In this document: in pieces, positions 620 to 58,951 of the stretch | Position numbering within the stretch: the first letter of the stretch is position 1 | Layout: the number at the start of each line of letters is the position of its first letter | Assembly (NCBI GenBank): GCA_036262535.1 | Contig: DATAIS010000003.1 | Location: 1-59,920, forward strand | DNA: 59,920 bases | Direction of reading: 5' to 3' | DNA from: Gemmatimonadaceae bacterium | Lineage (GTDB): Bacteria > Gemmatimonadota > Gemmatimonadetes > Gemmatimonadales > Gemmatimonadaceae | Position numbers and translations under genes: made by a program | Notes under the pieces: model-generated | Databases searched by the model: none | Told to the model about the DNA's origin: nothing | Seen by the model: only the letters and a program-made list of their open reading frames with translations

Positions 620-2590
620 ATGCAGAATCGCTGGGCTGACGAGGCCGCCGCACGACATGGCGCCGACCCCCTGTCGATGCGCGTGTATTCATCGCGGCTG
701 CTCGGATCCGAGTCCTCGCTCGTCCTCCACGGTGGCGGAAATACGTCGGTGAAGGCGACCGCGCTCGATCCATTCGGGACGACGCACGACGTGCTGTACG
801 TGAAGGGCAGCGGCTGGGATCTCGCGACGATCGAGCCGCAGGGGTTCGCGCCCGTCCGCCTGGACCTCCTGCGCCGACTCTCCGAGCTGCCGTCGCTCGC
901 CGACTCGGCCCTCGTGCGCGCGCAGCGAAGCGCGCTGCTCGATCCGGGCGCGCCCGACCCGAGCATCGAAGCCGTGCTGCACGCGATGATCCCCTTCGCG
1001 TACGTCGATCACACGCATGCCGACGCGGTCGTGGCGATCACCAACACGCCTAACGGCGAGGAACACGCGCGCGCCGCATTCGGACCGCGAGTGCTCCTCG
1101 TGCCGTACGTGATGCCGGGATTCAAGCTCGCACGGACCGTCGGCGACATGACACGATCGATCGACTGGGAGGGCTGCGACGGACTGATTCTCCTGGGCCA
1201 CGGCATCTTCACCTGGGGATCGAGCGCCAGGGCCAGCTATGACGCCATGATCCGTCTCGTCACCGCGGCCGAGGAATACCTCGATGCGCGTGGTGCGTTT
1301 CGCTCCGTGCGCCGCTCCGAGTGTGGCGCCGGGGATCTCGTCACCCTCGCACGCCTCCGCCGCGAGGTCTCGGAGCTGGCAGGCCGGCCGCTCGTCGCGC
1401 GGCTGAATCAGTCGGCGGAAGCATGCGGCTTCGCCGCACACGAGAAGGTCGACAGCATCGCTGCCCGCGGTCCGGTGACGCCGGACCACATCATTCGCAC
1501 CAAGCGGGTGCCCCTCATTTTCGGCGACGAGCCTGCCGATGCGGCGATGAGCTACCGGGACGCGTACGGCGACTACTTCCGACGCCACGCCGACGGGAGC
1601 CTGACGATGCTCGACCCCGCGCCGCGGTGGGCGGTGTGGCGCGATCGCGGAGTCATCGCGTTCGGACCCACCGTCGCCGACGCGAACGTCGTCCACGACA
1701 TCGCGGAGCACACCGTCGCCGTCATCCAGTGGGCGGAGGTCCTGGGCGGCTGGTGCGCACTCTCCGAGTCCGACCTCTTCGCGGTCGAGTACTGGGAGCT
1801 CGAGCAGGCAAAGCTCAGGAAGCGGGGCTCGGGACGCCCCCTCGACGGTCGTGTGGCGTTCGTGACCGGCGCGGCGAGCGGGATCGGCCGCGCCGTCGCC
1901 CACGAGCTCTCACGGCAGGGCGCCGCCGTGGTCGGCGCAGACATCCGCGGCGTCCCCTCCGATCAGGAAACGCCGACCTGTCGACATTTCGTCTGCGACG
2001 TGACGAAGGCGTCGGACGTAGCCCGTGCGGTGGGCGAGACCGTCCGGCAATTCGGCGGATTGGACATCCTCGTGAGCAACGCGGGTGTGTTCCCCAGGTC
2101 CGCGCGCATCGAGGAGATGGACGAGTCGCTGTGGCAGGACGCGCTGGCCATCAACCTCACCAGCCACCAACGGGTCCTGCAGGCCTGCATCCCGTACCTC
2201 CGTCATGGCGTCGAGCCGTCGGTGGTCGTGATCGGTTCGAAGAACGTGCCGGCACCGGGTCTCGGGCAGGCTGCCTATTCCGCCAGCAAGGCGGGGCTCA
2301 CTCAACTCGCACGGGTCGCGGCGCTCGAGCTGGCCGCCGACGGGATTCGAGTGAACGTGCTTCACCCCAATGCCGTGTTCGACACCGGCGCGTGGACCCC
2401 CGAGGTCCTCGCGGCGCGGGCCGCGGCCTATGGCGTGTCGGTGGAGGAGTACAAGCACAACAATCTCCTCGGGGTCGAAGTCGCCGCGCACGACGTCGCC
2501 CTGGCCGTAGCGGCGCTCGCCGGTCCGAGCTTTCGTCGCACCACCGGCGCGCAGATTCCCATCGACGGCGGTAACGATCGCGTGATCTGA
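620..2590 (+). CDS. Bifunctional class II aldolase/adducin-domain and short-chain dehydrogenase (SDR) fusion protein
   Basis: 656-aa ORF. The N-terminal roughly 400 aa are class-II-aldolase-like (HGGGNTS, DHTHAD metal-ligand region). The C-terminal roughly 250 aa are SDR, with the TGAASGIGRA Rossmann motif and YSASKAG catalytic motif. Confidence 0.85.
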   Translation: MQNRWADEAAARHGADPLSMRVYSSRLLGSESSLVLHGGGNTSVKATALDPFGTTHDVLYVKGSGWDLATIEPQGFAPVRLDLLRRLSELPSLADSALVRAQRSALLDPGAPDPSIEAVLHAMIPFAYVDHTHADAVVAITNTPNGEEHARAAFGPRVLLVPYVMPGFKLARTVGDMTRSIDWEGCDGLILLGHGIFTWGSSARASYDAMIRLVTAAEEYLDARGAFRSVRRSECGAGDLVTLARLRREVSELAGRPLVARLNQSAEACGFAAHEKVDSIAARGPVTPDHIIRTKRVPLIFGDEPADAAMSYRDAYGDYFRRHADGSLTMLDPAPRWAVWRDRGVIAFGPTVADANVVHDIAEHTVAVIQWAEVLGGWCALSESDLFAVEYWELEQAKLRKRGSGRPLDGRVAFVTGAASGIGRAVAHELSRQGAAVVGADIRGVPSDQETPTCRHFVCDVTKASDVARAVGETVRQFGGLDILVSNAGVFPRSARIEEMDESLWQDALAINLTSHQRVLQACIPYLRHGVEPSVVVIGSKNVPAPGLGQAAYSASKAGLTQLARVAALELAADGIRVNVLHPNAVFDTGAWTPEVLAARAAAYGVSVEEYKHNNLLGVEVAAHDVALAVAALAGPSFRRTTGAQIPIDGGNDRVI

Positions 2591-2731
2591 TCCGGCTGGC
2601 CGATGGCTTCCCCTCCACCCGGCGCTTGCGAGGCCGTAACTTGGAGCAGCTGTCCGGCTGGGAGGGTCGTCGCCAGAGCAGCATCTCTTGCCGGGCGTAT
2701 TCAGCGTCCCTGCAGTTCCGTGGTGGTGATA

Positions 2732-3781: not shown

Positions 3782-3788
3782 GGAAGAC

Positions 3789-6227: not shown

Positions 6228-6245
6228 CACAGAAGTGAGATAGAA

Positions 6246-6278
6246 GCGAAAAGGCCGCCTGAAAGGCGGCCTTTTCGC
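6246..6278. terminator. Bidirectional stem-loop terminator between the ALDH gene and the tRNA operon
   Basis: GCGAAAAGGCCGCC-TGAA-AGGCGGCCTTTTCGC is a perfect GC-rich hairpin. It has an A-tract on one side and a T-tract on the other, so it can terminate both convergent transcripts. Confidence 0.8.
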
Positions 6279-6657: not shown

Positions 6658-7293
6658 CGGCGCGAGGGGGTCCGCGCCCGACGCGAGCGCGTCGATCAGG
6701 GCGCGGAATGCGCGGCCCCGATGGCTGATTCGCTCCTTCTCCGCGATCGACGCCTCGCCGAAGGTTCGCCCCAGCTCGTCCGACAGAAAGTGCGCGTCAT
6801 AGCCGAAGCCGCCGGTACCGGCCGGCTGGTCGACGATCCGCCCCGGCGTCTCGCCGCGCCGCACCAGCTCCCGCGAGCCGTCGACGAACGCGGCCGCGCA
6901 GACGAAGCGCGCGCGGCGGTCACCGGCCCCGCGGAGGGCGGCGACGAGCTTCGCGTTGTTCGCCGCGTCGAGCGCGGAACCGGCAAGATCCTCTCGACCG
7001 CTGTAGCGCTTGCTCCGCACCCCCGGCAGCCCGCCTAACGTGTCGACCTCGAGCCCGGAATCGTCGGCGAGGGCGGGCAGCCCCGTCCGCCCATGGAACC
7101 AGCGCGCCTTCGCGAGGGCATTTTCCTCGAAGGTCGGCCACTGCTCCACCTCGTCTTCAGCGGGATCCACCGCGAGGCCGAGCGATTCGGGGGTGACGAG
7201 CCAGATGGCGAGTGGCGCGAGGAGCGCCTCCAGCTCGCGCTGCTTGCCGCGGTTTCGCGTCGCGACGAGGAGTCGCGGCGGCAGGTCAGCCAC
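6649..7293 (-). CDS. rdgB: Non-canonical purine NTP pyrophosphatase (XTP/dITP diphosphatase, HAM1/RdgB family)
   Basis: 214 aa. N-terminus [17 protein letters not shown]. Also [19 protein letters not shown] and GGFGYD motifs typical of RdgB. Confidence 0.85.
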
Positions 7294-8848: not shown

Positions 8849-9357
8849 TGCGACTGGGCTCCGTCGATGACGTCGTTGACGAGTCGCTGGAGCGCGACGC
8901 GCCGGCCGTTAGGCTCGGCGCCTTCGTTGTACTCGCCTTCGGCGATGAGCCCGCGACGCTCCCAGAGGACGCGGCCCGTCTTCTGGTCCACGATCTCGAT
9001 GTCGCAGACGATCTGCAGCTTGCGGCGGGCCGACGTCGGCTGCCGCCCGACGGCGGCGAAGGCGATCGGGATGTCGGGCTCGTAACGGACGAGCGTTCCG
9101 CGAACGACCGCGTCGGCTCTCGCCTCGGGAGCGTCGCGGAGCCCCAGCCGCGACTGCATCTCGCGGCGCAGCGACTCCCAGACCTCGCGCTGGAGCTCGG
9201 GCTGTGGCGTCTCGTTCTCGAACGGGAGCACGGCGACGGTGCGGACGTGCTCGGGCAGGCCACCACCGGCGAACCCGTACGGCCAGCACGCGCCGACGAC
9301 GAGCGTCAGCAGCGCGAGCGCGAGGCTCCAGCCGCTATGGAGTCCAGATCGACGCAT
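8842..9357 (-). CDS. LptE-like outer-membrane lipoprotein (putative LPS-assembly lipoprotein)
   Basis: 171 aa. A signal peptide ends in LVVGAC. It is followed by YGFAGGGLPEHVRTVAVLPFENET, which matches the LptE-family N-terminal pattern (C-x-Y-x-F-x-G...I/V-x-T-I/V-x-V-x-x-F-x-N). Family assignment is from memory. Confidence 0.55.
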   Translation of the reverse strand: MRRSGLHSGWSLALALLTLVVGACWPYGFAGGGLPEHVRTVAVLPFENETPQPELQREVWESLRREMQSRLGLRDAPEARADAVVRGTLVRYEPDIPIAFAAVGRQPTSARRKLQIVCDIEIVDQKTGRVLWERRGLIAEGEYNEGAEPNGRRVALQRLVNDVIDGAQSQW

Positions 9358-9967: not shown

Positions 9968-12003
9968 CTGACGATGATGATATCGCTGATGCGGTCGCCC
10001 TGGACGAGGGCGTCCATCGCGTCGAAGCCGCCGACGACACGCGCGAAGATCGTATAACGCGCGTCGAGATGCGGCTGCGGCGACAGCGTCAGGAAATACT
10101 GGCTGCCACCGGTGTCGGGGCCGGAGAGCGCCATCCCGACCGCGCCGCGCGAGTAGCGCTGGAGGTTCAGCTCGTCCCGGATCGCGTATCCCGGCCCCCC
10201 ATTGCCGTCGCCGCGGGGATCGCCGTCCTGAGCGACGAAGTTCGGGACGACGCGATGGAAGCGCACGTTGCGGTAATACCCCGAGCGCGCAAGCCGGACG
10301 AAGTTCTCGACGGTGAGCGGGGCGTCCTCACCCAGCAGCTCGAGCTCGATCGGACCACGCTCGCTGACGATGCGCGCAAGGCGGGGGCGGCCTTCGAGCG
10401 TCGGCACGACGTACTCGCGCACGACACCGGCGTACCAGCCGCGGGGGCGCTCGACACCTTCGACGCCGGGCCAGTGAGCGAGCGGGGGGACCCCGCGCGC
10501 GGGCGCACGGACGAGGGGATCGTCGGATGGCGGGAGGGCACGAAGCGCGGCGAGCGCCGAGTCGGCGAACGCCGCGCTGTCGCGGCGCCACGCGTTGGCG
10601 ACGTACTGGATGGCGGCGATCCGCGCGTCGTTGCCCGAATCGCGGGCGGCCAGGCGGTAGCTCGCGAGCACCGCGGGTACTTCGGCCGCGCGCGCGCTGT
10701 CCGCCAGCGCGAGGATGGCGGTGGCGCGAACGAAGAAATCGGAATCTTCCACGGCCGCGAGGACCGCCGCGCGGCGCGCCTCGCGCTCCGACGCGGAATC
10801 GAGCGCGGCCGCGACTGCGGCGACCGCGGACTGCCTGACGCGCGGGTCGGCATCGGTGAGGAGCGGCCGCGCGATACGCTCGAGTGTTTCGACGCGCGGT
10901 GCTCCGGCGGCGGCGTCGGCGAGCGCAGCGCGCATCCGCCAGTCCGAGGCACGGAGCCAGTCATCCTGGGCCGCGAGCTGAAAGCCGGAACGCGTTGCCG
11001 ATTCGAGGAGGCTGCGGCGGAACATCAGGGACGTGTCGGCTCGCCAGAGCGCGGTCCACAGCTCGGCGGAGACGTTTCGCCCCGCGAGCGCCTGCGCCGC
11101 GGCAATGCGAACGTTGGCGTCCGGATCCTGCGCACCGCGGCCGAGCGTCGGAATCTCGCCGTCGCCGAAGGTCGCGAGCGATCGGAGCGCGTTGATGCGA
11201 ACGTGCGGCTCGGCGTCGCTGGCGAGGCGTCGCAGCGCGGCCATCGCGGAAGCGGCGAGCGAATCTCCGACGACGCCGGCAGTCAGGGCGCGCGCGATCT
11301 GAGCGCGCAGCTCCGCCGGCGAGCACTCGTAGTATCCGGCACCCCCTGAGGGGGCGGACGTGCGCGTGTCCTGGAGCGATGCAAGCAGCGCCCGGGCGCC
11401 TGCCGCGACGCGAGGACGCGACAGCGCGTACGCTGCCGCCCAACGAACGCACGCGCTCGAATGGGACAGCAGTGCCGAGATCTCGGCCGCGGGGACCGGA
11501 CGGAGCTTGGCCGCGCCGCGGAGCAGCTCGCCGGCGGTGGCGTCGTTCGTCGTGCGGAGGTGGCCGACGATCGCTGCGCGGGCCGGCTCGCCGATCTCTC
11601 CGAGGGCGAAGGCAGCCTGCACGGCGACCGAGGGGACGCCATCGAGCGCAGCTTCGAGCGCCGGGATGCTCGCCGTGTCACGCAGCATGCCGAGCGCGAA
11701 GGCGGCGCGCGCCGCAACGCCGGTGTCTGCGTCGGTGAGTAGTGCGCGCAGCGCTGGCGCGGCGGCACGCGTCTTCGTCTGGCCGATGGCGAGCGTCGCG
11801 GCGCGCCGAAGCGGGACGCTCGATGCGCGCGTGCCCGCGAGGAAGACGCTGGTATCGGCGCGTCGCGCATCGGCGGCGGCCAGGACCTGTGCGTACGCCG
11901 CGACGTCGCTCGACGCGAAGGGTCCGAGGGAACCGCCCCCGGACGCGCATCCGACGACGCCCGCCAGCGCTGCGGTGCCGACGAGCCGGAGAGCGTTGCT
12001 CAC
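9964..12003 (-). CDS. Lipoprotein with N-terminal HEAT/PBS-lyase-type repeats and a C-terminal cyclophilin-type peptidyl-prolyl cis-trans isomerase domain
   Basis: The C-terminal roughly 165 aa (PLTVENFVRLARSGYYRNVRFHRVVPNFVAQDGDP...GSQYFLTL...FARVVGGFDAMD) are a clear cyclophilin domain. Upstream are many Ala/Leu/Arg-rich HEAT-like repeats (VRWAAAYALSR, RIAAAQALAG). The start is set at GTG 12003, 1 nt after the thioesterase stop, giving MSNALRLVGTAALAGVVGC (lipobox). The ORF-track start 12126 would overlap the upstream gene. Confidence 0.75.
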   Translation of the reverse strand: MSNALRLVGTAALAGVVGCASGGGSLGPFASSDVAAYAQVLAAADARRADTSVFLAGTRASSVPLRRAATLAIGQTKTRAAAPALRALLTDADTGVAARAAFALGMLRDTASIPALEAALDGVPSVAVQAAFALGEIGEPARAAIVGHLRTTNDATAGELLRGAAKLRPVPAAEISALLSHSSACVRWAAAYALSRPRVAAGARALLASLQDTRTSAPSGGAGYYECSPAELRAQIARALTAGVVGDSLAASAMAALRRLASDAEPHVRINALRSLATFGDGEIPTLGRGAQDPDANVRIAAAQALAGRNVSAELWTALWRADTSLMFRRSLLESATRSGFQLAAQDDWLRASDWRMRAALADAAAGAPRVETLERIARPLLTDADPRVRQSAVAAVAAALDSASEREARRAAVLAAVEDSDFFVRATAILALADSARAAEVPAVLASYRLAARDSGNDARIAAIQYVANAWRRDSAAFADSALAALRALPPSDDPLVRAPARGVPPLAHWPGVEGVERPRGWYAGVVREYVVPTLEGRPRLARIVSERGPIELELLGEDAPLTVENFVRLARSGYYRNVRFHRVVPNFVAQDGDPRGDGNGGPGYAIRDELNLQRYSRGAVGMALSGPDTGGSQYFLTLSPQPHLDARYTIFARVVGGFDAMDALVQGDRISDIIIVR

Positions 12004-12004
12004 G

Positions 12005-14050: not shown

Positions 14051-14643
14051 TGCAGCTTCGCTGCGATGGTGAGCCTGCCGTGGGACCCGGGAGCGACGGT
14101 GACGTCGGTGGGGACGTCCCAGAGGTTGGCGGCGACGTAGGCGTCGGCGCCGGCGAGGAAGTGGTTCACGATGACGAGGGTCAGCCAGTCTTCGACGAAG
14201 CTGCGGCGCGGGCCGATACGCGAGCGGGCGCGCTGCGCGATCGGCGAGAGCGCTCGCACCGCGGTGACTGTCGTTCCGCTGGTGTCGTAACGGACCACCA
14301 CGCTGTCGTAGGCGAGCCGGCGCGCGGCGCGGAGGTCCTGCGCGGACTTGGCGAGCATCGCGAGCGCGCCCGCCTCGGTGGCGACGAAGATCGCGCCGGC
14401 GGTCGGCCGGTCGAGGATCGACTGCGCGCTGCCGGGAATGGCGAGGGAGTAGAGAAAGGCGCGGCGGGGCGTGATCGGCGGGGCGGGCGCGGGGCGCGGG
14501 ACCGCGAGCACGGGAGCACGCACGGGCCCGCGCGCGGTCGTGTCCGGGACCTGGGCGCCTAACGTCCCCGCGCCGAGGCCCGCGGCGAGGACCGCGATCG
14601 CGGCGAGGCCGCGCTGGCGGGAGCGTGTGGGAATCGAACCCAC
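14044..14643 (-). CDS. Hypothetical secreted/membrane protein (DUF5683-like); start uncertain
   Basis: Frame of ORF 14044..15090. It has a signal-like LAAIAVLAAGLGAGTLGA followed by FLYSLAIPGSAQ and a hydrophobic C-terminal region. The only plausible start I can find downstream of selD is GTG 14643, which lies inside the T-arm of tRNA-Sec. Confidence 0.4.
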   Translation of the reverse strand: MGSIPTRSRQRGLAAIAVLAAGLGAGTLGAQVPDTTARGPVRAPVLAVPRPAPAPPITPRRAFLYSLAIPGSAQSILDRPTAGAIFVATEAGALAMLAKSAQDLRAARRLAYDSVVVRYDTSGTTVTAVRALSPIAQRARSRIGPRRSFVEDWLTLVIVNHFLAGADAYVAANLWDVPTDVTVAPGSHGRLTIAAKLQW

Positions 14644-15764: not shown

Positions 15765-15784
15765 GGGCGGGGTGGCTGGAGTGC

Positions 15785-16168
15785 CTAACGGAGCGCGGCG
15801 ACGGCCTCGATCTCGACGAGCACGCCGCGCGGAAGGCCCGCCGCCTGCACGGTCGAGCGGGCGGGACGCGTATCGCCGAAGGCGCGCGCGTAGACCTCGT
15901 TCATGCGCGGGAAGTCCGCCATGTCGGCGAGGAAGACCGTCGTCTTCACCACGTCGCGGAACGAGACGCCCGCCGCCTCGAGGATCGCGGCGAGGTTGGC
16001 GAGGACCCGCTCCGTCTGCGCGACGACGTCGCCGGCGACCACCTGGCCGCTCGCCGGATCGAGCGCGATCTGGCCCGCGGTGAAGAGAAAACCGTTCGCG
16101 GCGACGGCCTGCGAATATGGGCCGATCGCGGCGGGGGCATTGCTGGTGTGAATCGTCTTCGTGCTCAC
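15785..16168 (-). CDS. ridA: RidA family reactive-intermediate (enamine/imine) deaminase (YjgF/L-PSP)
   Basis: 127 aa. APAAIGPYSQAV...FTAGQIALDP...TTVFLADMADF...ARSTVQAAGLPRGVLVEIE is the classic RidA pattern. Confidence 0.88.
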   Translation of the reverse strand: MSTKTIHTSNAPAAIGPYSQAVAANGFLFTAGQIALDPASGQVVAGDVVAQTERVLANLAAILEAAGVSFRDVVKTTVFLADMADFPRMNEVYARAFGDTRPARSTVQAAGLPRGVLVEIEAVAALR

Positions 16169-31172: not shown

Positions 31173-32614
<1,442 letters not shown>

Positions 32615-37784: not shown

Positions 37785-39056
37785 TCAGCGCAGAACGTCC
37801 GTCCCGAGGTAGGGCCGAAGCGCCTCGGGAACGCGGACCGATCCGTCAGGCTGCTGGTGGTGCTCGAGAAGTCCGATGATCGTGCGCGGGAAGGCCACCC
37901 CGGATCCGTTCAGCGTGTGAACGAAGCGCGGCTTCTCCCCCGGAGCCGGCCGGTAGCGGATGTTCGCCCGGCGCGCCTGGAAGTCGAGGAAGTTCGAGCA
38001 CGAGGAGACCTCGAGCCACTTGCCGACGCCCGGCGCCCAGATCTCCAGGTCGTACGTCTTCGCGCTCGCGAAGCCCGTGTCGCCCGCGGCGAGCAGGAGA
38101 ACCCGGTACGGCAGCTCGAGGAGCTGGAGGACCCGCTCCGCCTGACGCGTGAGGAGCTCGTGCTGCTCGGCGCTCTGCTCCGGCGTCGTGAAGCGCACCA
38201 GCTCGACCTTGTCGAACTGGTGTACGCGAATGAGCCCACGCGTATCCTTGCCCGCGGCGCCGGCCTCCCGGCGAAAGCATGGGCTGTAGCCGGTGATCCC
38301 CTTCGGAAGCTGCCCGGCGTCGAGAATCTCGTCGCGGAGGAGGTTGGTGATCGGGACCTCGGCGGTGGGAACGAGAAACATTCCCCCTCCGTCGACGCCG
38401 TACATGTCGTCCTCGAACTTCGGCAGCTGCCCGGTGCCGAACATCGACGCGCGATTCACCACGAACGGCACCCACGCCTCCTCGTAGTCGTGCTCGCGGA
38501 GGTGGAGGTCGATCATGAAGTTCATGAGCGCGCGCACGAGACGCGGCCCGTTCCCGCGGAGGACGACGAAGCCGGACCCGGAGATCCTGGCGCCGCGGGC
38601 GAGGTCGAGGATGCCCAGCTTCTCGCCGAGCTCCCAGTGCGGGACGACGGCCTCCGCGCGCGGCGTTCCCCAGCTGCGGACGACGGTGTTCGCCTCCTCG
38701 CCGCCGAGCGGGACGTCGGGCAGCGTGACGTTAGGCAGCTCGGCGAGCAGCGACTGGATGCTGCCCTCCATGGTGGCGAGCTCGCGATCGAGGCGGCCAA
38801 TCTCCTCGCCGAGGGCGCGGCCGGTCGCGACGAGCTCGGTCGCGTCCTCGCCGGCGCGCTTCCGGCGCGCGACTTCCTGGCTCGACGCGTTGCGCGCCGC
38901 CTTGCGCTCCTCGAGCGCCTGGATCGTCAGCCGACGGTCGCGGTCGAGCTCGACCAGGCGGTCGAGCGTCGGTCCGAGGCTGTCGATCCTGCCGCGGCGC
39001 TCCATCCCGCTGCGGAGCGCCTCCAGTCCCTCGCGGATGGCGCGGAGGTCGTGCAT
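37785..39056 (-). CDS. serS: Serine--tRNA ligase
   Basis: 423 aa. An N-terminal coiled-coil arm and class II motifs (FRREAGAAGKDTRGLIRVHQF, GSGVAFPRT). Confidence 0.93.
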   Translation of the reverse strand: MHDLRAIREGLEALRSGMERRGRIDSLGPTLDRLVELDRDRRLTIQALEERKAARNASSQEVARRKRAGEDATELVATGRALGEEIGRLDRELATMEGSIQSLLAELPNVTLPDVPLGGEEANTVVRSWGTPRAEAVVPHWELGEKLGILDLARGARISGSGFVVLRGNGPRLVRALMNFMIDLHLREHDYEEAWVPFVVNRASMFGTGQLPKFEDDMYGVDGGGMFLVPTAEVPITNLLRDEILDAGQLPKGITGYSPCFRREAGAAGKDTRGLIRVHQFDKVELVRFTTPEQSAEQHELLTRQAERVLQLLELPYRVLLLAAGDTGFASAKTYDLEIWAPGVGKWLEVSSCSNFLDFQARRANIRYRPAPGEKPRFVHTLNGSGVAFPRTIIGLLEHHQQPDGSVRVPEALRPYLGTDVLR

Positions 39057-40131: not shown

Positions 40132-40136
40132 CAGCC

Positions 40137-42756: not shown

Positions 42757-43571
42757 GAGTCTGGTCGTTAGGCAGCGGAAGCAAGGGGAACGCGCTCGTC
42801 GTCGAGTGCGGAGACACGCGCGTGCTCGTCGACGCCGGCTTTCCGGCGCGCACGCTCGCGGGGCGCATGCGCGCGGTCGGGATCGAGCCGGGGTCGATCT
42901 CGGCGTGCCTGCTCACGCACGAGCACACCGATCACACTCGGGGCGCCGCCCGCGCCTGGCGGCGCTGGCGGTGGCCGCTCTACGCCACCGCGGGGACGAT
43001 CAGCGAGAGCGTCGAGCTGGCCGGGACGCCGGTGACGCAGGTCGAGGGAGGGACGACGTTCAGCGTCGGCCGGGCCGACCTGACGCCGGTGGCGATCTCG
43101 CACGACGCCACCGACCCGATCGGCGTGGTGGTGACTGACCGTGCCTCGGGAGCGCGCGCGGCCATCGTGTATGATCTCGGTTGCGTCACCAATCCGGTCC
43201 GCGACGCCGTGCGCGACGTGGACCTGATGGTCATCGAGGCGAACCACGACGAGGGGATGCTGCGGACCGGTCCCTACCCGCTCTATCTGCAGCGCCGGAT
43301 CGCGAGCCGCACCGGGCACCTCAGCAACCGTGACGCCGCCGCGCTCTGCGCCGACGTCGCGCATCGCGGGCTGCAGCACGTCGTGCTCGCCCACCTCAGC
43401 GAGAACAACAACGATCAGCAGGTCGCCCGCGCGACGGTGACCGAGGCGCTGGGGCGCACGCGCTTCCGCGGCACGGTGACGGCGGCGCCGCAGCATGGCC
43501 CTGTCGGCCCCTTCTGTCCCGGGACGGCGGTATCGCGCGCCAGGGTCGAGCAGCTCCAGCTCGCGTTCTGA
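42753..43571 (+). CDS. MBL-fold metallo-hydrolase
   Basis: Frame of ORF 42378..43571, starting at GTG 42753 (GTGA overlap with the upstream stop) or GTG 42744. LLTHEHTDHTRG (HxHxDH) and later HLS motifs. Confidence 0.75.
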   Translation: MRVWSLGSGSKGNALVVECGDTRVLVDAGFPARTLAGRMRAVGIEPGSISACLLTHEHTDHTRGAARAWRRWRWPLYATAGTISESVELAGTPVTQVEGGTTFSVGRADLTPVAISHDATDPIGVVVTDRASGARAAIVYDLGCVTNPVRDAVRDVDLMVIEANHDEGMLRTGPYPLYLQRRIASRTGHLSNRDAAALCADVAHRGLQHVVLAHLSENNNDQQVARATVTEALGRTRFRGTVTAAPQHGPVGPFCPGTAVSRARVEQLQLAF

Positions 43572-47468: not shown

Positions 47469-48268
47469 GAGCGCGTCGCGGCGAGCACGAGCACCACGAT
47501 GCCGAGCAGCACGCGATAGACGGCGAAGATCCCGTAGCTGTGGCGGGCCACGTAGCGGAGCAGCACCGCGATCGCCAGCCACGCGCTCGCCGCGGCGGCG
47601 ACGATGCCGACGACGATCGGCGCCAGGTCGTCCGCGGCCGCGATCGCGGCGGGGACTTCCTTGGCGGCGGCGGCGGCGGTGATCGGCATGCTCATGAGGA
47701 AGCTGAACACGGCCGCGGCCTCACGCGAGAAGCCTAACGCGCGGCCGGCGGTGATCGTCGATCCGGAGCGCGACACGCCGGGCACGAGCGCGAATGCCTG
47801 CGCGATGCCGAAGGTCAGCGCCTGCGGCCAGCGCATCTCGTCGAGCGACCGCGCCTGGGGTGCCCATCGGTCCGCGGCCCAGAGAAGGATGCCCATCACG
47901 ATCAGCGATGTGGCGATCACGTATGGGGAGCGAAGCACCGTCTCCGCGTAGTCCGCGACCAGCACGCCGGCGATCGCTCCGGGAATCGTCGCCAGGACGA
48001 GGAACAGAACGCGCCGCTCCTCCGGAGTCTCGACGCGCCGCTTTCGCAGGATGGCGAACGCGCTGCGTGCGAGGCGCACCCAGGCATCGCGGAAGAACCA
48101 GATCACGGCCGCGAGGGTGCCGAGGTGCAGCGCGACGTCGACGGCGAGGCCGGGGTCCGGCCAGCCAAGCAGCCAGGGCGCGAGCGCGAGGTGCGCGGAG
48201 CTGCTCACGGGAAGGAACTCGGTCAGCCCCTGGATGACGCCGAGCACCAGCGCCTGGAAGACGGTCAT
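47465..48268 (-). CDS. uppP: Undecaprenyl-diphosphate phosphatase
   Basis: 267 aa. GLTEFLPVSSSAHL and PGVSRSGSTI motifs, polytopic membrane protein. Confidence 0.92.
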   Translation of the reverse strand: MTVFQALVLGVIQGLTEFLPVSSSAHLALAPWLLGWPDPGLAVDVALHLGTLAAVIWFFRDAWVRLARSAFAILRKRRVETPEERRVLFLVLATIPGAIAGVLVADYAETVLRSPYVIATSLIVMGILLWAADRWAPQARSLDEMRWPQALTFGIAQAFALVPGVSRSGSTITAGRALGFSREAAAVFSFLMSMPITAAAAAKEVPAAIAAADDLAPIVVGIVAAAASAWLAIAVLLRYVARHSYGIFAVYRVLLGIVVLVLAATRS

Positions 48269-50251: not shown

Positions 50252-51162
50252 GCCGCCTCCCCTCTCCACCACCGGTCCGCTCGCGCCGCGGCATCGGGGG
50301 CCGCTGGATCGAGCAGCGTCAGGCGCTCGCGCGGGAGCTGATTCCGCATCCAGGTTCGCTGCCGCTTGGCGTACTGGCGCGTCTCGATCACGATACGCTC
50401 TCGCGCGCGCTCGAGCGATGTGCGATCGACCACTGCCTCACGAAGCGCCTCGTACCCCGCCGCGTTCCAGGCCGGTGCCTCGGAGGGGACGTCGGCGAGG
50501 AGCGAGCGCACCTCGTCGGCCCAGCCGGCCGCCAGCATTCGATCCACGCGCGTCTCGATCCTTTCGCGGAGCGACGCGCCGGGGTCGACGACAAGATAAC
50601 GCGCCTCGTGCCGCGGCGGCCGCGCCGCGCTCCGGTGAAGCGCCGACAGCGGACGACCGGTGAGCAGCGCGACTTCGATCGTCCGCAGCAGCTGCGCGCG
50701 GCCGAGGTGCGACCGCGCGGGATCGAGCACGATGCACCACCGCCGCAGCTCCGCGACCGAGAGCTGAGCGAGGTAGCGCTCGAGCCCACGCCGGCGTTCG
50801 GGGTCGAGCAGTGGCTCCTCGAAGAGCGGCGCGAAGAGCGCCCGCAGGTAGAAGCCGGTGCCGCCGACCACTACCACCTCGCGCCGCGCGGCCCGTGCGC
50901 GATCGATGGCCGCGTCCGCGTGCGCCGCCCACGCTGCGGCCGAGAATCGCGCGGTCGGCTCGGCGATGTCGATGCCGACGTGTGGCACGCGCCGCCGCTC
51001 CTCTGCGGTCGGCTTCGCGGTGCCGATGTCGAAGCGGCGGTAGACCTGGCGCGAATCGGCGCTGATCAACACCGCACCGTAGCGCTCAGCGAGGTCGAGC
51101 GCGATCGCCGACTTCCCGGCCGCGGTCGGGCCGGTGATGACGCGGATGTCAGCGTCGACCAA
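50248..51162 (-). CDS. miaA: tRNA dimethylallyltransferase
   Basis: 304 aa. P-loop GPTAAGKS, DSRQVYR, HH.IDI-like region. Confidence 0.9.
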   Translation of the reverse strand: MVDADIRVITGPTAAGKSAIALDLAERYGAVLISADSRQVYRRFDIGTAKPTAEERRRVPHVGIDIAEPTARFSAAAWAAHADAAIDRARAARREVVVVGGTGFYLRALFAPLFEEPLLDPERRRGLERYLAQLSVAELRRWCIVLDPARSHLGRAQLLRTIEVALLTGRPLSALHRSAARPPRHEARYLVVDPGASLRERIETRVDRMLAAGWADEVRSLLADVPSEAPAWNAAGYEALREAVVDRTSLERARERIVIETRQYAKRQRTWMRNQLPRERLTLLDPAAPDAAARADRWWRGEAA

Positions 51163-52891
51163 AGCGGCGCTCGACCTCGTCCCAGCCGATGCGAACGATC
51201 GTCGCCCGTCCGTGCACGTCGTGCGCGGGAAGCGTCGTGCGCGCGAGCGCGACGTAGAGGGCGCGCATCTCGTCGAGCGAGAGCGCGTCCCCGCCCTTGA
51301 TCGCCGCCTTGCACGCGACCGTCGCGGCGAGCCGCTCGTGCGTCGCGGCGGTGCCGGCGACCCGATCGCCGGTCAGCGCGTCGAGCGTCTCGCGCAGGCA
51401 GCGCTCGGCGTCGAAGCGCGGGTGCGGCATCGGCACGGCGCGCACGAGCAAGGTGTGGCCACCGAAGCCCTCGACGTCGAAGCCGAGGCGCTCCAGCATG
51501 TCGCGGTTCTGCTCGAATGCCTCCGACTCGGCGGGGCCGAGATGCAGCGTCATCGGGAAGAGCAGCCTCTGCGCCGGCGCCTCACCGCGCTCGAGCGCGC
51601 CGAGGAAGCGCTCGTAGAGCACACGCTCGTGCGCCGAGTGCTGGTCGATGAGGACGATTCCCTGCTCGTGCTCGAAGCAGAGATAGGTGCGGGCCCACTG
51701 CACGAGCGTCGGGATCTCGATCGGCTGTTCCGCGGCTTCAGGGGCTGCGGTGGCCGGCGCGCCGTCCGGTTCCGCCGTGAACAGGGGTCCCGCCTCGTCC
51801 GGGTCGCCGCGAGAGCGCAGCGTGTCGACGTCGAGGGGCGTGGCATCGGAAGCGGTCACCGCTCCACCCTGCCACCAGCTGCGGGCGCCGATCGTCGCCG
51901 CGGCCTCCATCGTGCCTAACGCGCGGCGCACCGCCCGCTCGACGATGCGCTCGACCTCCCAGCGCTCGCGAAAGCGGACCTCGGCCTTGGCCGGATGGAC
52001 GTTGACGTCGACGTCGGCGCCGGGCATGGTGATCGAGAGAAGGATCGTCGGTCGGACGCCGGCGGGGATCGTCGAGCGATAGGCGGCCTCGGCGGCGCGA
52101 ACCAGCCCCGGGTCGCGGATCGCGCGGCCATTCACCGCGAGGAAGACGCGGCGGCCTCCGGTGCCGACGTCCTGCGGGCTCTCGACGAGTCCCTCGACGC
52201 GGACCGGTCCCGCCACGTCGTCCACTGCGACGAGCCGCTCGGCGGCGTTTCCGCCCCAGAGCGCGGCGACGCGCGCACGCAGTGACGACGCCGGCGGGAG
52301 CGCGAGCGCCTGACGGCCGTCGTGTGTCACGGTGAGCCGCACCTCGCGCCGGGCGAGCGCGACCAGGGTCAGCGTCTCGACGATCGCGCGCCACTCGGAG
52401 CGCGAACCCCGCATGAACTTGAGGCGCGCGGGCGCGTTGTAGAACAGCGAACCGACGGTGACGGTGGTGCCGCGGCGACGCGCGACGTCGCCGACGCTGA
52501 CGACGGTGCCGCCCGCGGCCTCGACGCGCGTTCCCGCGCCGTCGGTCGCGGACGTTTCGATGAGGAGCTTCGACACGGAGCAGATCGCGGGGAGCGCCTC
52601 GCCCCGGAAGCCGAAGCTGCGCACGGCGACGAGGTCAGAGGCGAGGCGGATCTTCGAGGTCGCGTGGCGGGAGAGGGCGAGCGTCGCATCGTCGCGCTCC
52701 ATGCCGCCGCCGTCGTCGCTGACGCGGATCCTGCTGCGTCCCCCCTCGTCGACCTCGACGTCGATCGAGGTCGCTCCCGCATCGAGGGCGTTCTCGACGA
52801 GCTCCTTCACCACCGAGGCCGGGCGCTCGACGACCTCGCCCGCCGCGATCTGGTCGGCTACTGCGCTGGGAAGGATCGCGATGCGCGGCAC
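51149..52891 (-). CDS. mutL: DNA mismatch repair protein MutL
   Basis: 580 aa. IAAGEVVERPASVVKELVENALDAGA (GHKL ATPase) and FGFRGEAL, plus the C-terminal dimerisation/endonuclease-type domain (DQHSAHERVLYE). Confidence 0.92.
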   Translation of the reverse strand: MPRIAILPSAVADQIAAGEVVERPASVVKELVENALDAGATSIDVEVDEGGRSRIRVSDDGGGMERDDATLALSRHATSKIRLASDLVAVRSFGFRGEALPAICSVSKLLIETSATDGAGTRVEAAGGTVVSVGDVARRRGTTVTVGSLFYNAPARLKFMRGSRSEWRAIVETLTLVALARREVRLTVTHDGRQALALPPASSLRARVAALWGGNAAERLVAVDDVAGPVRVEGLVESPQDVGTGGRRVFLAVNGRAIRDPGLVRAAEAAYRSTIPAGVRPTILLSITMPGADVDVNVHPAKAEVRFRERWEVERIVERAVRRALGTMEAAATIGARSWWQGGAVTASDATPLDVDTLRSRGDPDEAGPLFTAEPDGAPATAAPEAAEQPIEIPTLVQWARTYLCFEHEQGIVLIDQHSAHERVLYERFLGALERGEAPAQRLLFPMTLHLGPAESEAFEQNRDMLERLGFDVEGFGGHTLLVRAVPMPHPRFDAERCLRETLDALTGDRVAGTAATHERLAATVACKAAIKGGDALSLDEMRALYVALARTTLPAHDVHGRATIVRIGWDEVERRFGRR

Positions 52892-55315: not shown

Positions 55316-57012
55316 TCCTTCGCTCCCGGCGGCGTCGTCGGCCGTCCTTCCTTCTGCTTGCGCGCCTGCACCTCGCGTTCGTCGCGCGAGGCACTGTTGA
55401 GGATCTGCTCCGCACGCTGCTGCTCGAGCGACCCGGCGGGTTGCGGCTGCGGTCGCGGCTCCCGTGGCGCGGCAGGCGACGGGTCCTCGTTCTGGTCGTT
55501 GCCGCCGCCGCCGCCGCCGCCGCCGCTCTGCTTCTTGCGCAGCGCGAGCTCGTAGTTCCACTTCGCATCCTGGTCGCGCGAGCGGAGGAGCAACACGCGC
55601 TTGTACGCCGCGAGCGCGGCGTCGAGCGCGGGCGCGGCGCTGTCGGCGGGAAGGGCGAGCCCGCGCTTGAGGTGCGCGAGACCGAGATTGAACAGCACGC
55701 GGTAGCGCAGCTCCGGATCCTGGGCCGCGGTGATGCGGTCGAGCAGCGCCGTGGCGCGCCCGAGCGAATCCGCGGCGACGAGCGCCGTCGCCAGATTGTA
55801 GATCATCGTCGGCGACCGATTGCCACCTTCGACGATGCGTCGATAGAGCGCCGCCGCTTCGGCGTACCGTCCCGCACGATAGGCACGCGCCGCGTCGGCC
55901 GCATCGTCCGCGCGGGCGGCGCGCGGCGCGAGGAGGAGCAGCAGTGCGGCCGCGGCCGCCGGTACCGCCGCCGCCGGACCCGGCTGACGTGCGCGGCGTC
56001 GCCGCTCGACGAGCCACGTATCGAGCAGGAGCAGCAGCAGCGCCGGGGCGAGGAACCAGTGGAAGCGCGGTGTGCGCTGTGCCGCGGCCTGCATGGCAAC
56101 GTCCGAGGCACGCAAGGAACGAAGCGCCGACAACACACGCGCCGCCTTGTCAGTCTGTTCCGCGGGAATGAAGGTCCCGCCCGCCGCCTCGGCGGCGGCG
56201 CGCAGGTGCTCCGGCGAGTAGCGGGACACCACGACCTGACCATTCTCGTCGGTCTTGAGTGCCCGGCGCCCCTCGTCGGTCGTGATCGGGATGGTCGCGC
56301 CCTGCGGCGTGCCGAAGCCGACTGTCACCACGGCGATACCTGCCTCCTTCGCGCGTCCCGCGGCCGCGCTCACGTCTTCCATGGGCTCGAACGCCTCCCC
56401 GTCACTGAGGACGACGAGCGCCTTCCCCGCGTCTCCCTGCGACGCCGAGAGGAGGTCCGTGCCCTGGCGGATCGCCCGCGCCAGGGAGCTTCCCGCCTGC
56501 CCGACGATCGACGGATCGAGATTGTCGAGGAAGAGGTCGATCGCCCCTTCGTCGACCGTCATCGGCGTCAGGATGTAGCTGCGACCCGCGAAGGCGATGA
56601 GCCCGACGCGACCTGTCGGGCGTTCCGCGCGCAGGCGCCGCAGCTCCTGCTTCACGCGCTCGAGGCGATTCGGGCGCTCGTCAGTGGCGAGCATGGAGAG
56701 CGACGCATCGACGGCGAGCACGAGGTCGTACCCCTGGACGCGAATCTGGACGCGCTCCCGTCCCCAGCGGGGCCCGGCGAGCGCGACGCCCGCCAGCGTT
56801 GCAGCGAGCCCGATCCGCAACGCGCGCCAGCGACTGGCCTGACGGCGCAGCCCCGGCGGGAGGAGGCGGCGCACGACGCTCTCGGTACCGAGCCGCGCGA
56901 GGCGGACCTCCCGGCGACGCTGGATGCGCAGCGCGAGCACCGCCAGCGCGACGCCGAGGACGACCGCGACGGCGATCATCCATGGCCTGTCGAAGGTCGC
57001 CAGCATCGTCAT
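55309..57012 (-). CDS. VWA-domain protein (BatB-like) fused to a TPR module (BatC-like)
   Basis: ORF 55309..58104 trimmed to MTMLATFDRPWM (ATG 57012, ATGA overlap with the batA stop), 567 aa. It has N-terminal TM helices, MIDAS AVDASLSM and a VWA fold. Then come a TM helix, TPR repeats, and a Gly8 and Pro/Gln/Glu-rich tail. Confidence 0.75.
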   Translation of the reverse strand: MTMLATFDRPWMIAVAVVLGVALAVLALRIQRRREVRLARLGTESVVRRLLPPGLRRQASRWRALRIGLAATLAGVALAGPRWGRERVQIRVQGYDLVLAVDASLSMLATDERPNRLERVKQELRRLRAERPTGRVGLIAFAGRSYILTPMTVDEGAIDLFLDNLDPSIVGQAGSSLARAIRQGTDLLSASQGDAGKALVVLSDGEAFEPMEDVSAAAGRAKEAGIAVVTVGFGTPQGATIPITTDEGRRALKTDENGQVVVSRYSPEHLRAAAEAAGGTFIPAEQTDKAARVLSALRSLRASDVAMQAAAQRTPRFHWFLAPALLLLLLDTWLVERRRRARQPGPAAAVPAAAAALLLLLAPRAARADDAADAARAYRAGRYAEAAALYRRIVEGGNRSPTMIYNLATALVAADSLGRATALLDRITAAQDPELRYRVLFNLGLAHLKRGLALPADSAAPALDAALAAYKRVLLLRSRDQDAKWNYELALRKKQSGGGGGGGGNDQNEDPSPAAPREPRPQPQPAGSLEQQRAEQILNSASRDEREVQARKQKEGRPTTPPGAKDW

Positions 57013-58001
57013 GGCAGCGGCGCCTTCCACGCGAGGAGCGCGAGCTCGAGCGCGATCGCGAGGAGCGCGAGCGACAGCGGCCACGTGTAGCGCTCGGTGA
57101 ACTGCGTGTACGTTCGCGTCTGCACCGGCGCGCGCTCGAGCTGGTCGATGAACTCGAGGGTACGCTCGAGCGCCGCGGCGTCCGTCGCGCGGAAGTAGCG
57201 ACCACCGGTGCCGTTCGCGACTTCGGTGAGGAGCGCGTCGTCGATGCGCACCGGCTGATACTCGAAGCGCAGCCCGCCGATCCCCCGCCCGACCGGGACG
57301 CGCGCCATGCCGACGCTGCCGACGCCGATCGCGTAGATGCGGATCCCGAACGCCTGTGCGGCCTTGCCGGCGGTGCGGGGATCGATCGAGCCGCGATTGT
57401 TCTCGCCGTCGGTGAGGAGAAGGATGACGCGCGACTTCCCCGGCGATCGGCGGAGTCGGTTGGCCGCGGTCGCGATCGCGGTACCGATCGCGGTCCCGTC
57501 CTCCAGCTGGCCCGGCTGGAGGTTCTGCACGCCGGCCATCACCACCGGGTAATCCGTCGTCAGCGGGACCTGGGTCAGCGCCTCGCCGGAGAATGCGACG
57601 AGCCCGATGCGGTCGCTCTTGCGCATGCTCACGAAGCGGCGCACGAGGTCCCGCGCCACCTCGAGCCGGTTCCGCGGCTGGAAATCCTCGGCGAGCATCG
57701 AGCTCGAGATGTCGAAGGCGATCATGATGTCGATCCCCTCCGATGTGATCTGCCGCGAGCTGGCGCCGGTCCGCGGCTGGGCGAGGGCGATGACGAGCCC
57801 CGCCAGCGCGAGATTCCTGAGGATGAAGAGCGCACGCGTGAGCGCACGGCCGGCGCGCGGTCCACGGAGAAGTGTCGGAACGCGCGAGTAGACGATCGCC
57901 GCGGGCCGGGCGCGACGGCGGAGCAGCCACCACACCGGGAGCAGGAGCAGGAGCGGGAGCACCCACGGCACCGCGAACTGGAGCCGGCCGATGCCGATCA
58001 T
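57009..58001 (-). CDS. VWA-domain membrane protein (BatA-like)
   Basis: ORF 57009..58478 trimmed to MIGIGRLQFAVPWVLPLLLLLP (ATG 58001, ATGA overlap), 330 aa. MIDAS AFDISSSM, LLTDGENN and a C-terminal TM helix. Confidence 0.8.
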   Translation of the reverse strand: MIGIGRLQFAVPWVLPLLLLLPVWWLLRRRARPAAIVYSRVPTLLRGPRAGRALTRALFILRNLALAGLVIALAQPRTGASSRQITSEGIDIMIAFDISSSMLAEDFQPRNRLEVARDLVRRFVSMRKSDRIGLVAFSGEALTQVPLTTDYPVVMAGVQNLQPGQLEDGTAIGTAIATAANRLRRSPGKSRVILLLTDGENNRGSIDPRTAGKAAQAFGIRIYAIGVGSVGMARVPVGRGIGGLRFEYQPVRIDDALLTEVANGTGGRYFRATDAAALERTLEFIDQLERAPVQTRTYTQFTERYTWPLSLALLAIALELALLAWKAPLP

Positions 58002-58951
58002 GCCGCCTCCTTGCGCCGTGCGTCGGAGGCCTGCTGCTGCTCGGCGGCAGCGCGCTCGACGTCGCGCACGATGGCGCGCGCGTCGCGTCCGAGCTCGCGC
58101 GCACGCTCGGCCGAGAGCGGGCGCCGTGCGAACTTCACCAGGTCCGCTTCCTCGAGCACCGCGGCGAGCTTCCCGTGCGGGATGAGCTTCGAGGCGCGCA
58201 GGGCGGCGACGAGCTCGGACGACGTCAGGGATGCCCGCGCCTCGGGGAGACGTCGCGCGAGGTAGTCGCGCAGCACGTCCACCATCAGCGCGACGTGACG
58301 CCCTCGCTCGCCGGCATCGACGAGGCCGAGCGCCTCGACGCGCGCGAACTCGCGCTCGGCGAAGAGTATGGCGTCCTCGACCGCGGCATCGCCGCGACGC
58401 TTGCGGCGCCGCCAGAGCCACCAGGCGAGGAGGAGGGCGAGCAGGACGGCGAGGATCACCGGCCACCAGCGCTGCCACCAGGGCACGGGGACGTCGAGTG
58501 GCGGACGCGGCGGCTTGGGGACGTGCAGCGTCGTGTCGGTCGGAAGCACCGACCGCACGTGCACCTGGACGTCGCCTAACGGCACGCGGCGCTCGGCGCC
58601 CCCGAGCCTGACGACGACGTCGCCGAAGCCCGGCGCGAGGTCGCCGACGTCCCAGGCGACGAGCTGGTAGAAGGCAGTCTGCTCGACCACGCCGGGGACC
58701 TCGCGCGGCTGGATGCGCCGCGACGCCGTCGCCTCGAGGGCGCCGCCGCTGTCCGGCCCGGCCGGAAACTCGATCGTCGCACCAGCGGGAGCCTGGACGC
58801 GCACACTCAGCTGGATCGGATCGCCGACGGCGACCGTCTCCGGCCGCACGGCGATGCCAAGCCGCACCGCTGCGAGCTCGTCGCCCTGCGCTTTCGCGAC
58901 GCCAGGGGCGCCGAGCAGGGCGATCATCAGGAAAGCCAGGCGACGCATCAC
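57998..58951 (-). CDS. DUF4381-like membrane protein of the Bat/MoxR operon, with an extra N-terminal secreted domain
   Basis: 317 aa. Signal peptide MMRRLAFLMIALLGAPGVAKA, a roughly 140-aa beta-rich region, and the TM helix WWPVILAVLLALLLAWWLW. The C-terminus (ELVAALRASKL...LEEADLVKFAR) is typical of DUF4381. Confidence 0.6.
   Translation of the reverse strand: MMRRLAFLMIALLGAPGVAKAQGDELAAVRLGIAVRPETVAVGDPIQLSVRVQAPAGATIEFPAGPDSGGALEATASRRIQPREVPGVVEQTAFYQLVAWDVGDLAPGFGDVVVRLGGAERRVPLGDVQVHVRSVLPTDTTLHVPKPPRPPLDVPVPWWQRWWPVILAVLLALLLAWWLWRRRKRRGDAAVEDAILFAEREFARVEALGLVDAGERGRHVALMVDVLRDYLARRLPEARASLTSSELVAALRASKLIPHGKLAAVLEEADLVKFARRPLSAERARELGRDARAIVRDVERAAAEQQQASDARRKEAA

Follow-up and report, generated by a model that had tools for sequence, protein, structure and literature searches.

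Why does one asymmetric word of eight nucleotides, CGTTAGGC, recur in a stretch of bacterial DNA whose composition and codon usage should make it rare, and what keeps it there? The stretch, referred to here as the window, comprises 59,920 bp from an uncultured Gemmatimonadaceae bacterium and has a G+C content of 70.4%. It is core chromosome, with genes for IF-2, NusA, SecDF, GatCAB, SerS, GroEL/ES, MutL and the Bat operon, and its RNA genes are three tRNAs, tRNA-Sec and the 5′ end of a 16S rRNA gene. A first-pass annotation, made from the sequence, had listed 13 exact copies of the word, and all 13 are found where it placed them, 6 on the plus strand and 7 on the minus strand. Dinucleotide-preserving shuffles of the window give an expectation of 0.87 copies and never exceed 3 in 100 shuffles, and Markov models predict 0.73 copies (order 1) or 0.38 copies (order 3). 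Genes were called anew on the window and their products annotated with Pfam, which gave 56 genes, and 12 of the copies lie inside coding sequences (CDS). This number can be compared with codon-preserving shuffles, in which 0.26 copies are expected when synonymous codons are exchanged among genes and the proteins are kept, and 0.24 when the order of codons is shuffled within genes (maximum 3 in 1000 for each). In an unbiased scan of 8-mers in the window, CGTTAGGC ranks first as an outlier. Measured against Markov and codon-aware expectations, as the first-pass annotation had proposed, the window thus has 13 copies where 0.24-0.87 are expected. The excess is real and highly non-random.

The word also accounts for the rarest codons of the window. 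There are 8 TTA codons among ~18,900 codons, and all 8 lie within CGTTAGGC; likewise, all four CCT-AAC dicodons have the flanking G...G that completes the word. It had been suggested that TTA-GGC and CCT-AAC might simply be common without these flanks, and they are not. The pentamer TTAGG occurs 14 times, 13 of them within CGTTAGGC. Among the 24 one-mismatch neighbours of the word, 22 are present in 0-3 copies, the exceptions being CGTCAGGC with 14 copies and CGTGAGGC with 6. A bias in codon or dicodon usage was considered as a source of the excess, and is ruled out by the synonymous and codon-order shuffles.

The copies use three registers, as had been described: eight read xCG-TTA-GGC, four read G-CCT-AAC-G, and one reads CGT-TAG. 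The sense copies of the first kind lie in the Ham1/rdgB gene (7033..7040, minus strand, ACG-TTA-GGC, encoding Thr-Leu-Gly), in a Zn-phospholipase-C-like gene (30585..30592, GCG-TTA-GGC, and 31068..31075, ACG-TTA-GGC, both on the plus strand), in uppP/BacA (47732..47739, minus, GCG-TTA-GGC), in mutL (51914..51921, minus, GCG-TTA-GGC) and in a DUF4381-like gene of the Bat operon (58574..58581, minus, CCG-TTA-GGC). The G-CCT-AAC-G copies, which encode Pro-Asn, are antisense to an aldolase/SDR gene (1048..1055, minus), an LptE-like gene (8907..8914, plus), gatB (32507..32514, plus) and serS (38729..38736, plus). The CGT-TAG copy (15783..15790, minus) supplies the stop codon of the RidA/L-PSP gene. 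The claim that every copy lies in a well-supported CDS holds for most of them, but the assignment is uncertain for two of the TTA copies. One of these, at 14557..14564 (minus, ACG-TTA-GGC), is near the 5′ end of an open reading frame (ORF) that has no Pfam match. The other, at 42766..42773 (plus, TCG-TTA-GGC), occupies codons 8-10 of a gene with a metallo-β-lactamase (MBL) fold, 10 bp past the upstream stop codon. In addition, the 13-mer GACGTTAGGCGCC reported to be common to three copies is present. The orientation of the copies was said to be blocky, with six consecutive plus-strand copies between 30.5 and 42.8 kb; plus-strand blocks are seen and are explained by gene strand, but only five copies are found in that interval. 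As a side observation, the predicted start of the ORF that carries the copy at 14557 (14044-14643) overlaps the tRNA-Sec gene at 14615-14711 on the minus strand, so its true start probably lies further downstream.

The word is found beyond the window. The two genomes of the species collection that stand nearest to it, L004 and L005, have ~79% nucleotide identity to the window and are collinear with its 21.3-42.6 kb interval; they carry 7 copies in 21 kb and 8 copies in 12 kb, and CGTTAGGC is the top outlier in each. More distant Gemmatimonadota have zero copies. Another 80 contigs, from soil, came from a scan of metagenomes with a conserved protein encoded nearby. In total, CGTTAGGC occurs in 32 of 94 Gemmatimonadota loci, with 101 copies in 263 kb (0.38 per kb), while the other 62 loci, which amount to 620 kb of similar composition, have zero copies. 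Nearly every TTAGG in the positive loci belongs to the word. Most carriers fall into one large clade of a single-gene tree, and there is a smaller group besides; the tree is weak, and no number of origins is claimed from it. The word is found again in independent metagenome-assembled genomes (MAGs), in contigs of metagenomes that come from many samples, and in one finished genome (PacBio). CGTTAGGC therefore belongs to a clade of Gemmatimonadaceae that includes the organism of the window and the cultured species Gemmatirosa kalamazoonensis, and it is present hundreds to thousands of times per genome there. Single-locus scans of word-negative relatives for "dialect" words gave no comparable outlier, and pooled scans are confounded by orthology. 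The sole hint of another enriched word in a relative is the palindrome TTGATCAA in the word-negative Gemmatimonadaceae contig L006 (JBBDXZ010000151.1), which scores 6 in a two-strand tally (~three sites) where 0.17 is expected in 11.7 kb, a very small sample. A protein search of PLSDB with the UvrD of the window returned no Gemmatimonadota, and full-text searches of the literature found no earlier description of CGTTAGGC.

Plasmid 1 of G. kalamazoonensis KBS708 (NZ_CP007129, 1,106,233 bp) was analysed in full. It holds 778 copies of the word, 404 on the plus strand and 374 on the minus strand, or 0.70 per kb, compared to 15-39 expected. CGTTAGGC is by far the top 8-mer outlier of this replicon, at ~50 times expectation, and the first 50 kb of plasmid 2 have 20 copies. 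On plasmid 1, 529 of the 778 copies are inside called genes and 160 are intergenic, and 89 or 94, by two counts, overlap the stop codon of a gene, with an even split between CGT-TAG-GC and GCC-TAA-CG. The density is higher between genes (0.74-1.1 per kb) than in coding DNA (0.56 per kb), and the label "intragenic" thus does not hold for the word in general. The word reshapes codon and stop-codon usage: 308 of the 388 TTA codons (79%) lie within it, ~10% of genes end in it, and it encodes 24% of Ala/Ser/Pro/Thr-Leu-Gly tripeptides and 30% of Pro-Asn dipeptides. The plasmid also has a tandem array of seven words at 1,005,342-1,005,436 (L184:5342-5436), mostly 12 bp apart, in which CGTTAGGCGCGG is repeated. 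This array lies inside a minus-strand ORF, where it would read as an Ala-Pro-Asn-rich linker; the GC-skew minimum and a weak RepA-like ORF are ~15 kb away.

Orthologous alignments allow the gain and loss of individual sites to be followed. Most sites are limited to one lineage. At the same positions other genomes encode the same peptide in ordinary codons, typically as CGCTCGGC, in which CTC is the preferred Leu codon, and these non-word sequences differ from CGTTAGGC at 2-4 positions. Within the window, the first of the two phospholipase copies has a counterpart in L005 and not in L004, and the second is not found at the orthologous position of either. The gatB copy is also present in L005 and is GCCGAACG in L004, and the serS copy is CCCGAACG in L004, which encodes the same Pro-Asn. 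Parallel gains at one position occur in non-sister genomes, and at some sites the word is invariant though its flanks have diverged. Overall, 60 words were retained in 145 pairwise comparisons versus the 32 that background conservation of 8-mers would give at equal divergence, the comparisons not being independent of one another. Among metagenomic relatives, the word uses all four stop-free frames and both stop-providing frames. With independent gains that leave the peptide unchanged, six frames and intergenic copies, the word is kept at the level of DNA and not of protein, as the first-pass annotation had argued, and its sites turn over between species.

Several simpler origins were considered and rejected. 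A longer repeat or mobile element around the word would leave a trace in its surroundings, yet the flanks carry no information beyond the 8 bp, save codon periodicity, in 93 metagenomic and 778 Gemmatirosa contexts. An RNA-level signal, or a regulatory TTA codon of the bldA type, is contradicted by the 20-40% of genic copies that are antisense and by the many copies that are intergenic.

A second form, CGTCAGGC, is enriched in the lineage of the window, where its density is 4.3 times that of word-negative relatives (59 versus 29 copies). Its 14 copies in the window are mostly at places where T instead of C would give a stop codon or a doubly rare codon pair. In the register CGT-CAG-GC, in which the T would create the stop codon, they are found on the minus strand at 24267..24274, 24321..24328, 38140..38147, 52308..52315, 56837..56844 and 59408..59415. 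In the register GTC-AGG, which has the rare AGG codon, they are found at 10833..10840, 22387..22394, 33520..33527 and 58606..58613, also on the minus strand. The remaining copies of this secondary form, which is enriched in word-bearing genomes, are at 1599..1606 (minus), 21547..21554, 37844..37851 and 50317..50324 (all plus). By Markov expectation, CGTCAGGC shows no clear enrichment in Gemmatirosa; on plasmid 1 the enriched one-off variants are TGTTAGGC, AGTTAGGC, CGTTAGAC, CGTTGGGC and CGTTAGGT. The enrichment of such variants is thus specific both to position and to lineage. Decay of a methylated CGTCAGGC from C to T was rejected as the source of the word, since CGCTCGGC is the source of most gains, the encoded peptide does not change, and the copies are conserved above background.

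The densest word region of plasmid 1 leads to ~97-bp repeats that start with GCCTAACG and end with CGTTAGGC. These repeats fold as integron attC sites: an unpaired spacer separates the R''/R' stem from the L''/L' stem, which has extrahelical bases, and the loop is variable. Nine pairs of the fold show compensatory changes. The features of attC and the core site GTTRRRY / RYYYAAC are as defined in PMC5027507. Rfam has no attC family and gave 0 hits on the array, and a dedicated covariance model was therefore built. It finds ~84 attC in one orientation at 810.8-856.2 kb, and next to the end of the array is a gene with a score of 413 bits for the integron-integrase model TIGR02249 (cutoff 265). 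The whole locus (L180:10839 to L181:7744, plasmid 1 810.8-857.7 kb) is a large, sedentary integron. Its cassettes carry small ORFs, including toxin-antitoxin and SnoaL-like genes, its intI (856,827-857,744) is co-oriented with the cassettes and not divergent, and two further attC lie ~25 kb away (L181:30953 and 31733). The integrase gene is close to a Tricorn-protease gene both in Gemmatirosa (L181:6827-11832) and in an unrelated metagenome contig (L188:1409-10996) whose flanking genome is without the word, which suggests that the integron locus is old and vertically inherited in this family.

The relation of this integron to the word is close. CGTTAGGC is C followed by GTTAGGC, and its positions 2-8 are a perfect core site GTTRRRY. 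About half of the Gemmatirosa attC R boxes are exactly GCCTAACG or CGTTAGGC, which makes the word the commonest R box of the integron of this species. Moreover, the variants TGTTAGGC, CGTTAGAC, CGTTGGGC and CGTTAGGT enriched in Gemmatirosa keep the GTT and the R/Y pattern, and variants that break GTT are not enriched there. Six integron loci of other genomes encode IntI proteins that are 63-68% identical, and one of them is syntenic with Gemmatirosa. Their attC R boxes are varied, and in the 10 kb of ordinary genome beside their intI genes TTAGG is seen once at most and CGTTAGGC has 0 copies. Searched with the covariance model at E<=1, the window gives no attC. Because the related integron loci lack the word, the window lacks attC, and CGTCAGGC breaks GTT, the integron is not sufficient to explain the word. 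The simplest reading is that whatever drives the word also converted near-cognate R boxes in Gemmatirosa.

The distribution of the word also differs between resident and acquired DNA. When word positions are crossed with attC coordinates, the bodies of ~80 integron cassettes hold ~1 word in ~33 kb, compared to 0.68 per kb elsewhere. Among the longest word-free stretches of plasmid 1 are those with two SusC/SusD loci, with a toxin gene and with the putative origin; the G+C content of most of them is below that of the replicon, but the origin stretch is an exception. The SusC/SusD stretches (L167:26302-34202, at 176-184 kb, and L170:4452-11434, at 304-311 kb) encode SusC/SusD-type outer-membrane receptor pairs, and their lack of the word together with below-average G+C suggests that they were acquired from outside the clade. 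Viral contigs were scanned for close pairs of the word, which yields a small phage sample selected on the word. The matches are mostly unrelated tandem repeats, and 86 of 120 loci held only the selected pair, but bona fide phage contigs of matching G+C have 0.3-0.8 words per kb beyond the selecting pair. The genuine phage fragments encode large terminase, tape-measure, tail and DNA polymerase genes. High-GC phage fragments that carry the word at host-like density include L197, L222, L229 and L236 (IMG/VR contigs 3300015615_001045, 3300020577_002214, 3300020577_001838 and 3300025917_000032). The first three have terminase, tape-measure, tail or DNA polymerase genes, and the one L236 ORF tested had no PHROG match. 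These comparisons show that accumulation of the word tracks the residence time of DNA.

Methylation and spacing place further limits on what the word can be. The single-molecule real-time (SMRT) methylome of Gemmatirosa, at >100x, comprises three N6-methyladenine (m6A) motifs, RGATCY, ATGCAC and CCAGN7TCA (PMC3974934). That paper lists the motifs found and does not discuss CGTTAGGC. Neither the word nor a like motif is among them, a result that covers m6A and presumably N4-methylcytosine (m4C), 5-methylcytosine (5mC) being invisible to the method. A methylation or restriction-modification target, one of the roles proposed at the outset, is therefore contradicted for m6A or m4C, and 5mC keeps a place among the possibilities. 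On plasmid 1 the copies are spaced nearly at random (coefficient of variation 0.88), but pairs 100-250 bp apart are in deficit, with 34 seen and 73 expected. Neither the window nor the related loci have inverted pairs at close range, and in Gemmatirosa the sole recurrent inverted word pairs are the attC sites.

What, then, might maintain the word? The closest known systems are the uptake signal sequences (USS) of Pasteurellaceae, with the 9-mer core AAGTGCGGT, and the DNA uptake sequences (DUS) of Neisseriaceae, GCCGTCTGAA and its dialects. Like these, CGTTAGGC is short, exact and asymmetric, is present in both orientations, and is lineage-specific yet common to related species. Both reach hundreds of copies per Mb: CGTTAGGC is found at 220-700 per Mb, and USS, which accumulate in temperate Pasteurellaceae phages, saturate at ~750 per Mb (PMC6776037). 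In coding DNA, uptake sequences favour the frames that cost least, and the peptides that they encode become twice as frequent (PMC2817400); the coding copies of CGTTAGGC likewise favour cheap frames and inflate their peptides. In both cases recently acquired DNA is poor in the word, host phages accumulate it, and some one-off variants are enriched. Uptake sequences are also sparse in accessory DNA and in mobile elements. CGTTAGGC differs from USS and DUS in belonging to another phylum, in its sequence, in having 8 bp without flanking information, in being built of the rarest codons of a 70% G+C genome, and in lacking terminator-type inverted pairs.

Because its abundance, symmetry, clade restriction and residence-time pattern match those of USS and DUS, CGTTAGGC may best be read, though tentatively and at somewhat less than an even chance, as a self-recognition tag of this kind that accumulates by biased transmission of word-bearing alleles. 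Of the four roles named in the first-pass annotation, a DNA-uptake signal would fit these features best. Under such a scheme, a cell protein would recognise the duplex 8-mer in either orientation, and DNA alleles that carry the word would be transmitted preferentially. The most probable route would be that competent cells take up conspecific DNA in preference to other DNA, and that it then replaces the resident allele by homologous recombination. Such molecular drive would pile up the word where it is cheapest, namely at synonymous positions (Ala/Ser/Pro/Thr-Leu-Gly and Pro-Asn), at stop codons and in intergenic DNA. Mutation would erode the copies, and species would thus come to differ in their sites but not in the word. 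From this match we infer that these bacteria have a reader protein, take up tagged DNA and are naturally competent.

Several points weigh against the uptake tag. No member of the Gemmatimonadota is known to have an uptake bias, competence or a receptor, a search of the literature on competence or uptake sequences in this phylum gave nothing relevant, and there are no competence genes among the 56 genes of the window. About half of the known uptake sequences are in terminators (bioRxiv 10.1101/2025.10.24.684340), whereas CGTTAGGC forms no inverted-repeat terminator hairpins. The spacing of the word is only slightly more even than random (coefficient of variation 0.88-1.0). Its coincidence with the core site GTTRRRY is not predicted by an uptake model; the prior chance that an arbitrary 8-mer holds GTTRRRY on either strand is ~0.4%, or a few per cent when other recognisable motifs are allowed for. 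Moreover, any sequence-specific process that acts on resident DNA, such as biased repair or a selected binding site, predicts most of the same patterns.

One such process would be ordinary selection, without transmission bias, for a binding site of an abundant chromosomal protein. The protein could be a nucleoid-associated or chromosome-organising factor, and the nucleoid-protein site among the proposed roles thus retains some probability; alternatively, the word could label DNA as "self" and hold back a host nuclease or defence system, whichever way it is oriented. A sharply defined 8-mer in both orientations, the greater density between genes and the deficit of very close pairs are in keeping with a binding site, and phages of the clade carry the word, as would be expected of DNA protection in these cells. 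Nevertheless, ~0.2-0.7 sites per kb, each holding the rarest codons, would be a heavy selective load, individual sites are poorly conserved between species, and sister lineages are without any equivalent word. To our knowledge, no nucleoid protein uses thousands of exact asymmetric 8-mers, and we consider a binding site unlikely, if credible. It is rather less probable that the word is made and kept by a sequence-specific repair or mutation bias, which would convert near-cognates in any DNA that replicates in these cells. An example would be a mismatch endonuclease of the very-short-patch type together with a cytosine-5 methyltransferase, as has been proposed for HIP1 (highly iterated palindrome 1, GCGATCGC) of cyanobacteria. 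Known very-short-patch effects are far weaker than the excess seen here. HIP1 is the only comparable octamer: it is also strongly over-represented (15- to 300-fold, PMC5861425) found in coding DNA in any frame and in one phylogenetic group, it is methylated by dedicated orphan methyltransferases (PMC4390886), and its function, long unknown, has lately been linked to transformation efficiency (bioRxiv 10.1101/2024.09.10.611283). The excess of CGTTAGGC is of HIP1-like size, and a repair bias would accommodate the word in all frames, its accumulation with residence time, its presence in phages, and attC R boxes that are mostly the exact word in Gemmatirosa and varied in word-negative relatives. 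But HIP1 and typical Dcm/Vsr targets are palindromic and HIP1 is methylated, whereas CGTTAGGC is asymmetric and absent from the SMRT motifs of Gemmatirosa, where the three motifs given above make up the methylome (PMC3974934). In addition, gains often need 2-4 substitutions, and a deficit of close pairs is not predicted by such a bias.

The core-site match raises a different idea, namely that IntI, or a tyrosine recombinase related to it, reads the word, and that the clade may have spread thousands of G/TTAGGC sites over its chromosomes, megaplasmids and phages as secondary recombination or docking sites for cassettes. This would account for the canonical core site within the word, for a complete integron on plasmid 1 with its high-scoring intI and classical attC, for the R boxes and variants that share the GTT pattern, and for cassette bodies that avoid the word. 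It would also give a role to the stop-codon copies, since a cassette inserted at G/TT would presumably spare the upstream gene. Yet most genomic copies, including those in the window, are isolated 8-mers without L boxes, spacer, hairpin partner or conserved flanks, and isolated core sites at synonymous positions are not the product of any known IntI reaction. Core sites in essential genes should harm and not be favoured, related integron-bearing genomes have varied R boxes and no enrichment of the word, the window has no attC, and the CGTCAGGC enriched in its lineage breaks the invariant GTT, all of which leaves docking sites quite improbable. A polar signal, either Chi for RecBCD/AddAB or a guide for FtsK such as the FtsK orienting polar sequences (KOPS) or architecture imparting sequences (AIMS), would likewise be an over-represented asymmetric word of 5-8 bp at roughly kilobase-scale spacing. 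CGTTAGGC is such an octamer, at ~1 per 1.4-4.6 kb, and the density of Chi in E. coli is similar. Chi and KOPS are defined by a strong leading-strand skew, which for KOPS is 0.79-0.91 (PMC3384302). Plasmid 1 has a clear GC-skew origin near 1,020 kb, beside the weak RepA-like ORF, and a terminus near 345 kb, but the word is divided 406:372 between leading and lagging strands (52% leading, a skew of 0.52), and intergenic copies alone, which are free of coding constraint, are divided 84:76. Its orientation is also balanced in the syntenic loci (54:47) and in the window (6:7), and its excess is much larger than that of the polar words and runs against codon preference. The lack of skew excludes CGTTAGGC from the Chi/KOPS class, contrary to the suggestion of a Chi-like or segregation signal, and a polar role is barely conceivable. 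Finally, chance, codon usage, a common dicodon or an assembly artefact might be invoked for the small sample of a single window. In codon-preserving shuffles 0.25 copies are expected, independent MAGs, metagenome contigs and a finished PacBio genome all carry the word, and 620 kb of relatives of similar composition have zero copies; the probability of such an origin is negligible.

If the word is an uptake tag, it would be the third independent case, in the little-studied and abundant soil phylum Gemmatimonadota; uptake sequences have so far been found only in Pasteurellaceae and Neisseriaceae, two proteobacterial families (bioRxiv 10.1101/2025.10.24.684340). It would imply natural transformation with self-recognition in uncultured soil Gemmatimonadaceae, which bears on gene flow in soil, and adding the word to constructs may make these bacteria genetically tractable. 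If instead it marks IntI docking sites, a promoterless cassette inserted at a stop-codon word (~1 gene in 10) would leave the gene intact and be co-transcribed with it, and integron recombination would be tied to whole-genome architecture and to the origin of cassettes and attC. Identity with the core site thus offers a second, sharper testable hypothesis. Whatever the mechanism, the word marks membership of the clade, flags recently acquired DNA and helps to assign phages to hosts in metagenomes, and the cultured, fully sequenced carrier G. kalamazoonensis KBS708 makes the mechanism directly testable.

Two further features of the window were observed. The window starts inside the 16S rRNA gene, and its positions 1-124 (minus strand) match the first ~130 nt, that is the 5′ end, of the small-subunit (SSU) rRNA with 93 bits; this fragment could give a precise placement of the organism. 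At 39778-40535, a Roadblock/LC7 (MglB-like) gene precedes one for a single-domain response regulator, and the pair adjoins serS and a histidine kinase. This arrangement is kept on the short Logan contigs that have the identical serS.

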